A stretch of DNA of 15,806 nt from a virus (taxonomy: Duplodnaviria; Heunggongvirae; Uroviricota; Caudoviricetes). The translations under genes and the position numbers were made by a program. Shown here piece by piece: positions 7,701 to 15,806 of this stretch. The notes below the pieces were generated by a model. That model was not told where the DNA came from, made no database searches, and saw only the letters and a list, made by a program, of their open reading frames with translations. The DNA lies in the IMG/VR virus record IMGVR_UViG_2623620496_000009, one strand, 5' to 3'. Numbering within the stretch: position 1 is the first letter of the stretch; every line of letters starts with the position of its first letter.

Positions 7701-7821
7701 CACGGGAGTTTCTGATTGCGCCAGCCAGCTCTTTCGAACTGGCCTGTGCAGCACGGAATGGGCGGGTGAGTTTGTCAACCGCATTAAGAATGACCTGCAG
7801 GCGCAGGTTATTATCACTCAT
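4744..7821 (-). CDS. T: Tail tape measure protein
   Basis: 1025-aa ORF with a coiled-coil-like N-terminal region, a central Ala/Leu/Gly-rich hydrophobic repeat region (PLAxLRxGL-like motifs) and a C-terminal domain; P2 gpT-like position after E/E'. Confidence 0.9.
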   Translation of the reverse strand: MSDNNLRLQVILNAVDKLTRPFRAAQASSKELAGAIRNSRDALKQLNQAGNSLEKFRKLQADNKKLGDRLNYARQKANLLSSELEAMEQPSQRHLVALGRQTLAVQRLEEQQKYLQKQTALVRAELYRAGISAKDDAGATARLARETSRYNQELSKQEARLKRLGEAQRRMNAARASYARSLEVRDRIAGTGATTTAAGLAMGTPVMAAVKSYTSMEDAMKGVAKQVNGLRDDNGNRTARFYEMQDAIKAASEQLPMENGAVDFAALVEGGARMNVANPDDSWEDQKRDLLAFASTAAKAATAFELPADELSESLGKIAQLYKIPTRNIEQLGDALNYLDDNAMSKGADIIDVMQRLGGVADRLDYRKAAALGSTFLTLGAAPEVAASAANAMVRELSIATMQSKSFFEGMNLLKLNPEVIEKQMTKDAMGTIQRVLEKVNALPQDKRLSAMTMLFGKEFGDDAAKLANNLPELQRQLKLTAGNDALGSMQKESDINKDSLSAQWLLVKTGAQNTFSSLGETLRQPLMDILFTVKSVTGALRRWVEANPELTGTLMKAAAVVAAVTVGLGTLAVVLAAVLGPLAVIRLGFSVLGIKTLPSVTAAVTRTSSALSWLAGAPLALLRRGLASSGHAAGLLTAPLSSLRRTASLTGNVLKTVAGAPVALLRSGLSGLRAVAVMFMNPLAVLRGGLAAAGTVLRVLASGPLAMLRVALYAVSGLLGALLSPIGLVVTALAGVALVVWKYWQPITAFLGGVVEGFKAAAGPVSAAFEPLKPVFQWIGDKVQALWGWFTDLLTPVKSTSAELQSAAAMGRRFGEALAEGLNMVMHPLDSLKSGVSWLLEKLGVVSKEAAKAKLPESVTRQQPATVNTNGKVMMPSGGFPSWGYGFAGMYDSGGYIPRGQFGIVGENGPEIVNGPANVTSRRNTAALAAVVAGMMGVAAAPAELPPLHPLALPAKGGEAMVSRAATVPPVYRIEAPTQIIIQMQPGQSAQDIAREVARQLDERERRLKAKARSNYSDQGGYDA

Positions 7822-8250
7822 CGTTAGCCCCGCTTCTCTGAATCGCTTTATACCGCCATTCCAGCACTTCGGTCAGCGGCATAACGTCAGTAACGGATGG
7901 CGGCCAGTGAAAGATGGTGGCGATATCAGCCACCAGATCGTCAACCGTCAGGCTGTCGGTAAACCGGCAAGCACCGACTTCTTCAACAAAAAAGTGACAA
8001 CCTCAACCGACATAGCGGTGAGATCTGCCGGGTCCATCTCTGCAATTTCCTGTGCAGTCAGTGCCGGGCTGGAGATGCGGGGGATCACGGTCATCATCGC
8101 GTTCACATCCATATCCATAATGGCCTGCAGGCGTGTACCGCGCAGTGCACCAGACTGCGGTTTACGCAGCACAATTTCGGTGATTTCCGTTTTACCGCGC
8201 TTGATAGGGGTATCCAGTTGAATAGTCTTTTCAGTCTGCTTATCGCTCAT
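7814..8250 (-). CDS. E+E': E+E' tail assembly chaperone made by a programmed -1 frameshift (about 145 aa)
   Basis: Slippery site TTTTTTG on the minus strand (forward 7987-7993). The -1 frame stays open for about 57 codons (VEEVGACRFTDS...AIQRSGANDE) to a TGA at 7814-7816 that overlaps the T start codon (ATGAGTGA). The predicted size is close to the P2 E+E' product as recalled. Confidence 0.6.
7948..8250 (-). CDS. E: Tail assembly chaperone E
   Basis: 100-aa ORF directly upstream of T, with a T6G slippery heptamer 12 codons before its stop; P2 gpE-like. Confidence 0.85.
   Translation of the reverse strand: MSDKQTEKTIQLDTPIKRGKTEITEIVLRKPQSGALRGTRLQAIMDMDVNAMMTVIPRISSPALTAQEIAEMDPADLTAMSVEVVTFLLKKSVLAGLPTA
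7987..7993 (-). other. Programmed -1 ribosomal frameshift slippery heptamer (U UUU UUG)
   Basis: Forward caaaaaa is TTTTTTG on the coding strand, aligned X XXY YYZ in the E reading frame. Confidence 0.6.
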
Positions 8251-10108: not shown

Positions 10109-10522
10109 TTATCTGCTTGCAGGGAAAACAGGCCAAATAATATCAGGTGCGGTGCTGGTATCTGTTGCCGTCACAGCCTCGATATAATCCAGCACAACGT
10201 TAAGTCGGGTAGTTTCCTCTTGCGTCAGTTTGCGCCCGGCCTGCAGCTTTAACTGAATCACGCTGATATTGACCATTGCTGCGTCTATCAACGACTGTTT
10301 TTTCTGTTCAGCGTCAGCTACCAGTTCATCATGAGAACGTTCCGGAGTGGGTGGTGCAGTAAATACCCCGTCTGAATACGCCCAGCCGATTCCGGGCTGC
10401 TCACTGATATCAGAAATATTAATGAGCTGCAGATTATCCGGCACAGTGAATTCATCCTCGCCATCCCAGACAATGACATTCACAACCATCCCATTTTCAA
10501 TAACTGCATATGACGCATTCAT
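10109..10522 (-). CDS. G: Tail fibre assembly protein (Caudovirales Tfa family), in the P2 G position
   Basis: 137-aa product from the ATG at 10520-10522, preceded by GAGGAG. The C-terminus ...DTSTAPDIIWPVFP is the characteristic Tfa ending. The start overlaps the H stop (TAATG). The six-frame ORF extends 8 codons further to a TTG. Confidence 0.85.
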   Translation of the reverse strand: MNASYAVIENGMVVNVIVWDGEDEFTVPDNLQLINISDISEQPGIGWAYSDGVFTAPPTPERSHDELVADAEQKKQSLIDAAMVNISVIQLKLQAGRKLTQEETTRLNVVLDYIEAVTATDTSTAPDIIWPVFPASR

Positions 10523-12441
10523 TATGCAAACTCCTCGATAATACAAACCCCATCAGCACCTTTCCCGCCCGTCATACTGGTTCCGCTATAACCTGCATCG
10601 TATGCACCACCTCCGCCTGAACCAAATGCCCTGCCTCTAACGCCACCGCCAGCGCCTGCGCGTCCACCGCCACCCCAGTACGATGTTCCGCCTTCACCGC
10701 TGACGCCGATATTTCCGGACTGACCGTCGCCTCCATCTCCACCAGTGATGCGGATATCGCCAGTACTCGGCACACCTCCGTTACCGCCGTTTGTGTTTGT
10801 AACACCCACTTTCCCGCCACCTTCGCCACCAGGAGCAATTAACGATGCGAATACGCTATTCCCGCCCCTGGTGCCGTTCGTTGCACTAACACCACCGGCC
10901 CCACCTGCGCCGATAGTGACTGGATAACTATTCTGTGTCGGGGTCATTATTGAAATTATTGTTCCACCGGCCCCACCGCCAGCACCGAAAAACGTTTCAT
11001 TATTGGATGTAGCCTTGCAGCCGCCCCCTCCGCCACCGCCGCCCGTTATTGTGACCCTGATCCGTTTTGTTTCTGGTGATGGGGTATACGTACCTGATGA
11101 CGCGAAAGCCCGGGTACTCAGCCGGCGTCCCACGTATCCGCTTGTATCTCCCAAACCAAGATAACGAATAACCTCCTGTTTGCTTGTTTTAGCCAGAATA
11201 TCCCGTCCAACATTAGTCAGGGTTGTCAGGCTGGCTGTATCATTCCCCGTAAAATACGGTAGTTTGTCTGCCGCAGTGGCAAGGCCTGCCAGTGCGGTCA
11301 GTGTGGCGTCGGCAGGTTGTTTTCCATTGGCAAGGTCATATACAGCCTTCACAGCTTTTGGTGTGGCAGCCTGCGTTTCTGACGTGCTGTTAGTGGCGCT
11401 GCTGAGTTGCACGGTACCTTTTACCGTCAGTGAAGCTGCAGGCACATCCGTTATCTGGCTCCACGGGTGCGTGTGACTGACAGGTGCCTTACCTGCTGCA
11501 AGGTCATATGCCGCCTTCACTGCCTTTGGTGTGGCAGCCTGCGTTTCTGACGTGCTGTTAGTGGCGCTGCTGAGTTGCACGGTGCCTTTTACCGTCAGTG
11601 AAGCTGCAGGCACATCCGTTATCTGATTCCACGGGTGTGTGTGACTGACAGGTGCCTTACCTGCTGCAAGGTCATATACAGCCTTCACTGCCTTTGGAGT
11701 GGCAGCCTGCGTTTCTGATGTGCTGTTAGTGGCGCTGCTGAGTTGCACGGTGCCTTTTACCGTCAGCGAGGCTGCAGGTACACCTGTTATCTGATTCCAC
11801 GGGTGTGTGTGACTGGCGGATGCTTTACCTGCTGCAAGATCATATGCAGCCTTCACAGCCTTCGGTGTTGCGGCCAGTATTTCGGATTCACTGTTGGTCG
11901 CACTGCTTAACTGAGTAAAACCTTTTGCGGTCAGCGAGGCGTCCGGGTGACGTCGTGACTGTTCGTGCTCTGATATTTTGTCATCCACATACTTGCGGGT
12001 TGCCAGCACTACAGCAGGGTCGATTTTCAGGATGATATTGTCCGTACTGCTGGTAATCAGCACCATGCGCACGGTCTGGGTACGCCCACTGCCTTCAGCC
12101 AGTTGCGGCTTATAGCTTTCCGGGCAGTTACCCACGGCAATCAATGCCCCGGACTCATCAAACAAGCCCACTTCACGTATCCACCAACCGCCCTCGTTTT
12201 CAGGGATCACCTGTTCAGCAATAATCTGGCTGCTGTTCTGCGGGTCGATATAAAGCATATTCAGCGCAGCCCGGCGTTTCTCATTTACCAGTGCCGTCTG
12301 CTTTGCGTCCGGCGTTGGCAATACTCCGCCGCCATCGCCCACCGCCATATGGGTAATTTTTAGCGGCACACCGAGCGCGGCGGCGCTGGCAAGTTTCGCC
12401 GCGCCAATATCCGTCAGCAGGGTATAAAATTTTGTGCTCAT
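10522..12441 (-). CDS. H: Tail fibre protein (P2 gpH-like N-terminus, Phage_fiber_2-type repeats, Gly-rich C-terminal domain)
   Basis: 639-aa ORF. The N-terminal ~165 aa resemble the P2 H baseplate-attachment region. It is followed by four tandem ~56-aa repeats (LSSATNSTSETQAATPKAVKA...HTHPWNQIT) and a glycine-rich C-terminal third. Confidence 0.9.
   Translation of the reverse strand: MSTKFYTLLTDIGAAKLASAAALGVPLKITHMAVGDGGGVLPTPDAKQTALVNEKRRAALNMLYIDPQNSSQIIAEQVIPENEGGWWIREVGLFDESGALIAVGNCPESYKPQLAEGSGRTQTVRMVLITSSTDNIILKIDPAVVLATRKYVDDKISEHEQSRRHPDASLTAKGFTQLSSATNSESEILAATPKAVKAAYDLAAGKASASHTHPWNQITGVPAASLTVKGTVQLSSATNSTSETQAATPKAVKAVYDLAAGKAPVSHTHPWNQITDVPAASLTVKGTVQLSSATNSTSETQAATPKAVKAAYDLAAGKAPVSHTHPWSQITDVPAASLTVKGTVQLSSATNSTSETQAATPKAVKAVYDLANGKQPADATLTALAGLATAADKLPYFTGNDTASLTTLTNVGRDILAKTSKQEVIRYLGLGDTSGYVGRRLSTRAFASSGTYTPSPETKRIRVTITGGGGGGGGCKATSNNETFFGAGGGAGGTIISIMTPTQNSYPVTIGAGGAGGVSATNGTRGGNSVFASLIAPGGEGGGKVGVTNTNGGNGGVPSTGDIRITGGDGGDGQSGNIGVSGEGGTSYWGGGGRAGAGGGVRGRAFGSGGGGAYDAGYSGTSMTGGKGADGVCIIEEFA
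11326..11940 (-). repeat. Tandem 168-bp in-frame coding repeats in the tail fibre gene (three full copies plus one partial)
   Basis: Near-identical DNA units, e.g. gccttcac[a/t]gc[t/c]tttgg[t/a]gtggcagcctgcgtttctga[c/t]gtgctgttagtggcgctgctgagttgcacggt, recurring about every 168 bp. Confidence 0.85.
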
Positions 12442-15143: not shown

Positions 15144-15806
15144 ATGCCAAATGAAAATCTTGATATTGACTCAAGGACTACCGAGCAATTATACGAATGG
15201 TATTTGCAAGGAAATTTGATAGTCAATAGACGTTATCAAAGGAAACTTGTATGGTCTCTAGAAGAAAAGACTTCTTTAATATCTTCTATGCTGCAACAAT
15301 ATCCTATTCCGTTATTATTATTTGTTACCATCAATGAACAAAGAGAAATATTGGATGGAATGCAAAGATTAGAAGCAATTATGAGCTTCATCGAACAGAG
15401 ATTTTCATTAGATGGACAATATTTTGATTTGGACTCTATAGCTTTAACAAAACAACTTAAAGATAATGGAACTTTAATTCAGAAAGAACCAATCCTTTCC
15501 CGTGATTCTTCAGCAATTATTGCACGTTATCGATTTGCAATATCAGAATATAGCTCCACAAATGAAAATATTGACGAAGTATTCAGACGAATAAACTCAA
15601 ACGGGAAGATTTTATCCAAACAAGAATTACGTAGTGCAGGAACAGTTAGTAACTTCTCTGAACTGGTCAGATCGATATCAACATCGATCAGAGGTGATAC
15701 TAGCCATTCTGACATTATGAATCTCGGTAATGACTCCAACTTACTGATAGTGTTTTATGTTCAGATAATGCCCGATGACTTTGTCATGCAGCTCCACCGA
15801 TTTTGA
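15144..15806 (+). CDS. DUF262 / ParB-like nuclease-superfamily protein (GmrSD N-terminal-type domain), 220 aa
   Basis: ATG at 15144 with a strong RBS. Motifs read directly from the translation: YQRKLVW, QQYPIP, ILDGMQRL (DGQQR-like), and FRRINSNGKILSKQELRSA (the second DUF262 signature). The gene is AT-rich and divergent from the phage V operon. Its stop codon is the last three bases of the window. Confidence 0.7.
   Translation: MPNENLDIDSRTTEQLYEWYLQGNLIVNRRYQRKLVWSLEEKTSLISSMLQQYPIPLLLFVTINEQREILDGMQRLEAIMSFIEQRFSLDGQYFDLDSIALTKQLKDNGTLIQKEPILSRDSSAIIARYRFAISEYSSTNENIDEVFRRINSNGKILSKQELRSAGTVSNFSELVRSISTSIRGDTSHSDIMNLGNDSNLLIVFYVQIMPDDFVMQLHRF

Follow-up and report, generated by a model that had tools for sequence, protein, structure and literature searches.

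A copy-number-variable 168-bp repeat array in a tail-fibre gene carried by a P2-like prophage of Escherichia coli

Introduction

When a tail-fibre gene carries a run of near-identical tandem repeats, is the run real, is it fixed, and what would a change in its length do to the fibre? The window considered here (the whole stretch of DNA that was analysed, 15,806 nucleotides of the IMG/VR virus record IMGVR_UViG_2623620496_000009) raises this question. A sequence-only reading had noticed in it 168-bp repeats coding for 56-aa units, and had proposed that they are recent duplications or are homogenised by recombination, that their number can change and thereby alter the length of the fibre, and that they are a hazard for assembly. 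In what follows, the gene, the array and its relatives in other prophages are described, and the possible explanations are weighed. The one that we favour, and regard as highly probable, is that the array consists of copy-number-variable shaft modules, the fibre changing in whole units through recombination between the repeats.

The tail-fibre gene and its surroundings

The following features delimit the gene, its domains and the gene next to it:

10522..12441, minus strand: tail-fibre gene, from the open reading frame and its translation of 639 aa, with a gpH-like N-terminus (P2) and a glycine-rich tip
11992..12441, minus strand: N-terminal domain for attachment to the baseplate, aa 1-150, PF12571 Phage_tail_fib, of the tail-collar fibre type (Pfam, 214.5 bits, cut-off 23)
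11143..11328, minus strand: conserved linker after the array (NGKQPADATLTALAGLATAADKLPYFTG...), common to fibres with other tips
10534..11094, minus strand: C-terminal glycine-rich domain, aa 450-636, PF21722 Gly_rich_2 (Pfam, 54.3 bits, cut-off 24.3)
10109..10522, minus strand: tail-fibre assembly (chaperone) gene, Caudo_TAP (Pfam PF02413 and RefSeq annotation)

In addition to its terminal domains, the fibre protein contains four stretches of PF03406 Phage_fiber_2, which reach together 237.1 bits against a Pfam cut-off of 22. The PF21722 domain is presumed to be the receptor-binding tip. According to Pfam, the fibre gene is preceded by gpI (Tail_P2_I) and gpJ and followed by the Caudo_TAP fibre-assembly gene, whose start shares one base with the stop codon of the fibre gene, and then by the sheath gene. 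This is the position of a gpH-type fibre in the P2 late operon, with gpI on one side, the assembly gene on the other, and sheath and tube beyond. The window matches E. coli chromosomes with 100% identity, and on these the RefSeq order is grxA-ybjM-ybjL followed by a P2-like prophage adjoining ybjL, with the prophage genes running ogr, D, U, tape measure, E/E', tube, sheath, fibre assembly, fibre, I, J, W and V; the RefSeq entry for the identical fibre locus is WP_000104780.1, "tail fiber protein". On the basis of domains, synteny and the RefSeq annotation of the identical locus, we assign the gene to a P2-like prophage of E. coli, as its tail fibre in the gpH position, in agreement with its earlier naming as a tail fibre gene.

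The likeness to P2 gpH comprises the PF12571 N-terminus, the slot between gpI and the fibre-assembly gene G, the presence of Phage_fiber_2 motifs after the N-terminal domain, and a conserved '...GKQP.DATLTALAGLATAAD..PYFTG' segment. Contrary to this, Pfam found no C-terminal region homologous to P2 gpH, the receptor-binding part of which is unrelated to the PF21722 tip found here in its place. Among isolated phages, the similarity is limited to the beginning of the gene: in a megablast search, its first 464 nt share 96-97% identity with E. coli phage 500465-1, Cartapus and many Klebsiella phages, and the phage records match these 464 N-terminal nucleotides only, the homology ending about 12 codons ahead of the first repeat unit. 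No isolated phage matching more than 24% of the fibre gene was found when the gene was searched against phage records (fiAA91-ss covers 19%).

Architecture of the repeat array

The array is made of four units, numbered here in the direction of translation:

11776-11943, minus strand: U1, aa 167-222, a diverged Phage_fiber_2 head followed by an HxH linker tail
11608-11775, minus strand: U2, aa 223-278, internal unit, haplotype A
11440-11607, minus strand: U3, aa 279-334, internal unit, haplotype B
11272-11439, minus strand: span of U4, repeat-like only in its first ~110 nt (11330-11439, aa 335 to ~371)

Tandem Repeats Finder reported a single strong array at 11330-11875, with a period of 168, 3.2 copies, 92% matches, no indels and a score of 917, and an independent repeat search returned three in-register copies of 259 nt starting at 11313, 11481 and 11649, that is, 168 nt apart. 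At the protein level, the motif LSSATNS occurs four times with a spacing of exactly 56 residues. U1 to U3 are whole, and U4 is the Phage_fiber_2 head alone, which then turns into the conserved unique linker, so that the description as three full and one partial 56-aa unit was correct, and the coordinates given for it, 11326-11940, were right within a few bases.

The claim that few positions separate the copies is true of part of the array. U2 and U3 differ at 9 of 168 nt (94.6% identity), affecting six codons synonymously and two non-synonymously out of 56, and U3 differs from the U4 head at 5 of 110 nt. U1, however, departs from U2 at 38 of its 168 nt (77% identity) and from U3 at 43 (74%), with most of the differences within its first 105 nt. 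At random, at least 159 matches out of 168 would occur with a probability of about 1.6e-75, which excludes chance as the source of the likeness between U2 and U3. Near-identical head-to-tail units, with a length that is a multiple of 3 and without indels, give the array the character of a variable-number tandem repeat (VNTR).

Unit number among related prophages

Other P2-like prophages of E. coli carry, in the same place, orthologues with 2, 3, 4, 5 or 6 units, all in frame:

2 units, 527 aa: strain D5 (L002)
3 units, 583 aa: strain 127 (L001) and E. coli HS (L011)
4 units, 639 aa: the window and strain CFSAN064035
5 units, 695 aa: L005 and L006
6 units, 751 aa: L004 and P0008-P0010

The copy number had been expected to be changeable, and among these related prophages it does change, in whole 168-bp steps; the comparison of relatives thus gives a variable count, the opposite of a fixed number with diverged copies. 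The same series appears in the best 120 protein clusters, where proteins of 583, 639, 695 and 751 aa bear three, four, five and six motifs, always at a 56-aa spacing, and the IMG/VR prophage contigs hold 2, 3, 4 and 5 units. The 695-aa class with five units accounts for 90 of these top 120 clusters, a census biased by the bit score, which ranks proteins with more units higher, and by the BLAST piece-joining rule, which hides 5- and 6-unit alleles.

Whether the shaft changes together with the tip can be judged from three fibres that share one tip, with 99-100% nucleotide identity over the last 560 nt, and have three (L001), four (window) and five (L006) units. Change in the shaft is therefore independent of the tip. 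Beyond this locus, the 56-aa unit has 1,319 matches (E<=1e-3) among 1.84 billion representative proteins, and in a tblastn search with two units it was found in a few phage records only (503046, PhiKM and two P1-like phages). Our literature search, of incomplete coverage, returned no publication on the 2-6-unit polymorphism or on the 56-aa composite unit.

Exchange between units

When all units were aligned, two main internal haplotypes were distinguished, A (U2 of the window) and B (U3 of the window), which are 9 sites apart; B is the commonest, and an identical copy of it is present in several other genomes. Several units are clear hybrids. The third unit of L004 reads B/A/B, the second unit of L006 joins the head of B to the tail of U1, the first units of L001 and L004 have the head of U1 and the tail of B or A, and L008 has a U1 head joined to an A-type tail. 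The 27 internal units of the 17 distinct arrays fall into 17 haplotypes, and of the 210 informative site pairs in these arrays 55 are incompatible by the four-gamete test. Copies of haplotype B are 100% identical in several genomes that diverge by 2-4% in the N-terminal 498 nt, and conservation between genomes is higher in the array region than in its flanks. The proposal of duplication or homogenisation by recombination is borne out by these mosaic units, by the failing site pairs and by the identity of one haplotype despite diverged flanks.

One alternative would be that the repeats are ancient and static, similar to each other through purifying selection only. The divergence of U1 is what such a history would leave behind, and P2 gpH itself keeps two diverged motifs at a 44-aa spacing. 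However, synonymous sites too are near-identical between U2 and U3, the copy number ranges from 2 to 6, and the units are recombinant mosaics; with variable copy number and mosaic units, the comparative data rule out ancient static repeats.

The patterns seen in the units are those expected of out-of-register recombination plus gene conversion, for which the pathway may be RecA-dependent unequal exchange or replication slippage. As the internal units are about 95-100% identical over at least 168 bp, out-of-register recombination can add or remove units in frame. According to the explanation favoured here, what the array encodes would be the shaft of a tail fibre that is trimeric and of P2 type (gpH-like). 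Each 56-aa unit is composed of a Phage_fiber_2 motif (a predicted strand and then a helix) and an HxH linker. Unequal crossing-over or slipped misalignment would add or remove whole units, always in frame, and gene conversion would move variants from one unit to another. The outcome would be a family of fibres with 2-6 units, in which the baseplate-attachment domain is constant and the tip can stay constant. Such a change would likely affect the length of the shaft, its reach or its flexibility, and not the receptor chemistry.

The same exchange could be seen in another light, with the repeated motif serving mainly as a homology patch for the swapping of N-terminal adaptor and C-terminal tip modules, and copy number being a neutral by-product. 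We consider this possible but somewhat doubtful as the main role of the array, and it is compatible with the favoured explanation. The 56-aa unit is found on fibres with unrelated N- and C-termini, as is a 44-aa variant without HxH; homologous proteins have up to 12 motif stretches each, and the 56-aa unit is often interleaved with the 44-aa unit to give a 100-aa super-repeat. The homology with Klebsiella and E. coli phages stops, as mentioned above, just ahead of U1. At the same locus, L009 carries three 44-aa units without HxH, and L003, L008, L009 and L010 have extra domains of 132-174 aa inserted between the conserved linker and the tip. The better conservation of the array with respect to its flanks would also fit a patch. 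However, a single patch would suffice for module exchange, and this reading leaves unexplained both the expansion of one haplotype to six units with all frames kept and the combination of the same N-terminus and tip with 3, 4 and 5 units, which the recombinational gain and loss of shaft modules would account for.

Persistence of the four-unit array

Arrays of this kind are an assembly hazard, as had been anticipated, and the draft genomes of related prophages illustrate it. Four IMG/VR contigs (L037, L036, L031 and L026) stop 11-56 nt into an internal unit, and L033, from the same genome as L037, begins 84 nt into the last unit, where the unit turns unique, so that L037 and L033 are a contig pair flanking an unresolved array; the draft L015 has an ambiguous base within a unit. 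Contig breaks also occur in fibres of the non-tandem 44-aa type, which means that sequence shared between prophages is part of the problem, besides the tandem array. These breaks would be the grounds for taking the four copies of the window for an artefact, a collapsed or expanded repeat. We hold this to be extremely unlikely. Ten complete E. coli chromosomes that come from different laboratories agree at 100% over the 5-kb region that contains the array, two further complete chromosomes are 99.6-99.9% identical over the same 5 kb, and the exact 639-aa protein is present on 567 contigs. The 10 identical complete chromosomes and the 567 contigs argue against mis-assembly in the window, and the four-unit array read from it is taken as real.

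All 12 of these complete chromosomes have four units, which bears on the speed at which the array changes. Tail-fibre genes are frequent targets of diversification systems, such as the G segment of Mu and the C segment of P1, and the array could be imagined as a programmed high-frequency switch (a contingency locus with phase variation), or as part of an invertible segment or a diversity-generating retroelement. Such a role is barely plausible here. The unit is of 168 bp and stays in frame in every variant seen, which makes on/off switching impossible, and the 12 near-identical prophages (at least 99.6% over 5 kb) share one count, which argues for slow change and against a high-frequency switch. 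The array thus appears stable on the time-scale of a clone, even though the 12 strains may be one clone, which limits what their agreement can tell. Furthermore, the annotation of the prophage stretch lists neither an invertase nor a reverse transcriptase, and there is no Chi site within the array and no significant inverted repeat around the gene, where only two weak ones of 18-20 nt with 78-80% identity were detected; the Chi and inverted-repeat searches do not suggest a recombination hotspot or an invertible segment.

The repeat unit and its putative metal sites

A complete unit has two parts. The first one is the Phage_fiber_2 motif, (A/D)ASLTxKGxxQLSSATNSxSExxAATPKAVKAxYDLA, also written SLTVKGTVQLSSATNSTSETQAATPKAVKAxYDLA, and the second one is the linker AGKA(P/S)(V/A)SHTHPW(N/S)QIT(D/G)VP, also written AGKAPVSHTHPWxQITDVP. 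This second half has a weak match with PF12789, below the Pfam cut-off. The hexapeptide SHTHPW is present in every complete unit (aa 210-215, 266-271 and 322-327), and with it one HxH motif:

11803..11811, minus strand: HxH motif 1, His211-Thr-His213, from the translation
11635..11643, minus strand: HxH motif 2, His267-Thr-His269, from the translation
11467..11475, minus strand: HxH motif 3, His323-Thr-His325, from the translation

The HxH is retained in divergent homologous units, which read SHTHAW, HKHPW or NHTHPW. In T4 gp37, the R1 and R2 pyocin fibres and P2 gpV, HxH motifs build octahedral six-histidine iron sites on the three-fold axis (PMC6116203). The fibre described here is assumed to be a trimer from its family membership; as every chain contributes one HxH in each unit, six histidines would come together in a trimer, and those of each complete unit would probably form a metal site on its axis.

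The available structures bear only on the first part of the unit. In PDB searches with the whole protein and with a profile of the unit, the sole solved protein with sequence similarity was Mu gpS (5YVQ, 8JU3 and 9KI1), residues 111-148 of which match unit positions 1-38 only (E=5e-10), and the sequence search found no match in the PDB for the HxH linker. An AlphaFold2 monomer of aa 151-440, computed without an alignment, reached a pLDDT of 40.3 and a pTM of 0.32, too low to be usable as a fold, and shows no more than a repeated strand-then-helix pattern in each unit. A monomer is also unable to represent a trimeric shaft.

Relation to known fibres

PF03406, the Phage_fiber_2 family to which the first ~38 residues of each unit give a strong match, includes Mu gpS, and it has been described in lambda Stf and in the collagen-like fibres of EHEC prophages (PMC3368898). 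However, Mu gpS has one copy of the motif, whereas here the motif is fused to the HxH linker and amplified as near-identical DNA. The tblastn alignment of P2 gpH with the unit covers the motif and leaves the HxH linker unmatched, and related P2-type fibres have two motifs 44 aa apart without HxH. The metal-binding fibres and spike mentioned above, T4 gp37, the R1/R2 pyocins and P2 gpV, to which T4 gp12 is added, have iron or zinc HxH sites to which the fibre described here is comparable in having one HxH per chain per unit (PMC6116203). There is, however, no sequence homology with them beyond the tripeptide, and the metal site is here a predicted one.

Regarding variation in length, repeats are stated to permit the adjustment of fibre length in the work on R-pyocin fibres (PMC6116203), EHEC prophage fibres have length-variable Gly-X-Y and heptad regions (PMC3368898), and whole-repeat deletions have been described in the tailocin fibres of Pseudomonas syringae (PMC12208367). 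As in the fibres studied here, the relatives among these EHEC and P. syringae fibres differ by whole repeats with the end domains retained, but their repeats are of 3 or 7 residues, or are large shaft-knob-knob units, as opposed to 56 residues. In-frame, VNTR-like variation is also found in bacterial surface fibres, such as the stalks of trimeric autotransporters and the streptococcal alpha C protein, whose repeats are long, near-identical and in frame, are polymorphic between strains and change via recombination. Contrary to the fibre, which is a virion protein, these bacterial adhesins are under immune selection.

Concluding remarks

Fibres of the gpH type with PF03406 repeats, shafts with a variable number of repeats and HxH motifs in trimeric fibres are all known, and the feature belongs to these kinds. 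It leaves the current understanding of tail-fibre evolution unchanged, and its practical value is modest. Since the array is a documented site of breaks and ambiguity in drafts, the lengths of fibre genes of P2-like prophages taken from short reads are not to be trusted without long reads. The composite of Phage_fiber_2 motif and HxH linker is a widespread unit, the HxH half of which had no solved structure in the PDB searches.

The number of units would alter the length of the fibre, and a more tentative step is to see in the unit count an evolvable ruler, with fibre reach and buried metal sites tuned to the thickness of the host O-antigen or capsule under host-dependent selection, the tip being unchanged. 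We consider this unlikely, but, if true, P2-like phages identical in every other respect would have host ranges predictable from their copy number. The alleles of 2-6 units that occur naturally with the same adaptor and tip represent a ready set of length variants with which reach can be tested against adsorption, both in phages and in retargeted tailocins.

Modular architecture of the fibre gene

Many Klebsiella pneumoniae phage records, together with the E. coli phages 500465-1 and Cartapus, match the first 464 nt of the fibre gene (window 12441 down to about 11978) at 96-97% identity. This homology of the 5' part breaks off abruptly directly before the repeat array, at a sharp mosaic boundary common to different genera.

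Fibres encoded at the same locus also differ beyond the array. Those of FDAARGOS_433 (L003), CX12 (L008) and HUM3355 (L009) have an additional domain of 132 aa, and that of D7 (L010) has a different extra domain of about 174 aa; in each case the insert follows the conserved post-array linker and precedes the glycine-rich tip. The array itself is exchanged in the HUM3355 fibre, where three 44-aa P2-type units stand in place of the 56-aa HxH units.

The 56-aa unit is also present in many copies in the fibre gene of the P1-like Punavirus Escherichia phage vB_EcoM-813R1 (record L013), in which tblastn places it at 10 positions. The splitting of this gene into consecutive coding sequences suggests frameshift or assembly errors inside the repeats of the deposited genome.

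L013 2730-6248: vB_EcoM-813R1 fibre gene, split in the annotation into four successive CDSs, each named 'tail protein (Fragment)'

A shorter periodicity is found in the tip, where the DNA of the glycine run forms a 9-nt periodic stretch flagged by TRF. The run counts 5 glycines in the close homologue P0114 (636 aa), versus 8 in the window fibre and in the other 118 top hits where it was found.

Window 11020-11043: eight-glycine run (TITGGGGGGGGCK), fibre aa 467-474

Neighbouring and overlapping genes

An antisense reading frame within the array is most likely a by-product of repeat composition, without support as a gene.

Window 11180-11476, plus strand: 98-aa antisense ORF inside the array

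Downstream of the fibre gene, the tail-fibre assembly gene is intact in the window and, according to RefSeq, is an internal fragment or pseudogene in several prophages whose fibre gene is intact. This could mean either that these prophages are defective or that the chaperone is dispensable for this tip.

Window 10109-10522: tail-fibre assembly gene, intact, 137 aa
L002 1100-1441, L003 1100-1441 and L009 1122-1439 (compared records): fragmentary or pseudogene copies, RefSeq annotation

Upstream of the tape-measure gene, gene E and a short GpE-family gene are arranged like the E/E+E' programmed frameshift pair of P2.

Window 7814-8250, minus strand: tail assembly gene E and short GpE-family gene

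Lastly, a DUF262-domain gene interrupts the late genes, with baseplate gene V on one side of it and the rest of them on the other.

Window 15144-15806 (15223-16477 in the compared record L007): DUF262-domain gene

RefSeq annotates it as a pseudogene without its C-terminus; two genes come after it, one for an IS1B transposase and one hypothetical. The locus resembles a cargo gene, possibly one for defence, that has been disrupted within a P2-like prophage.
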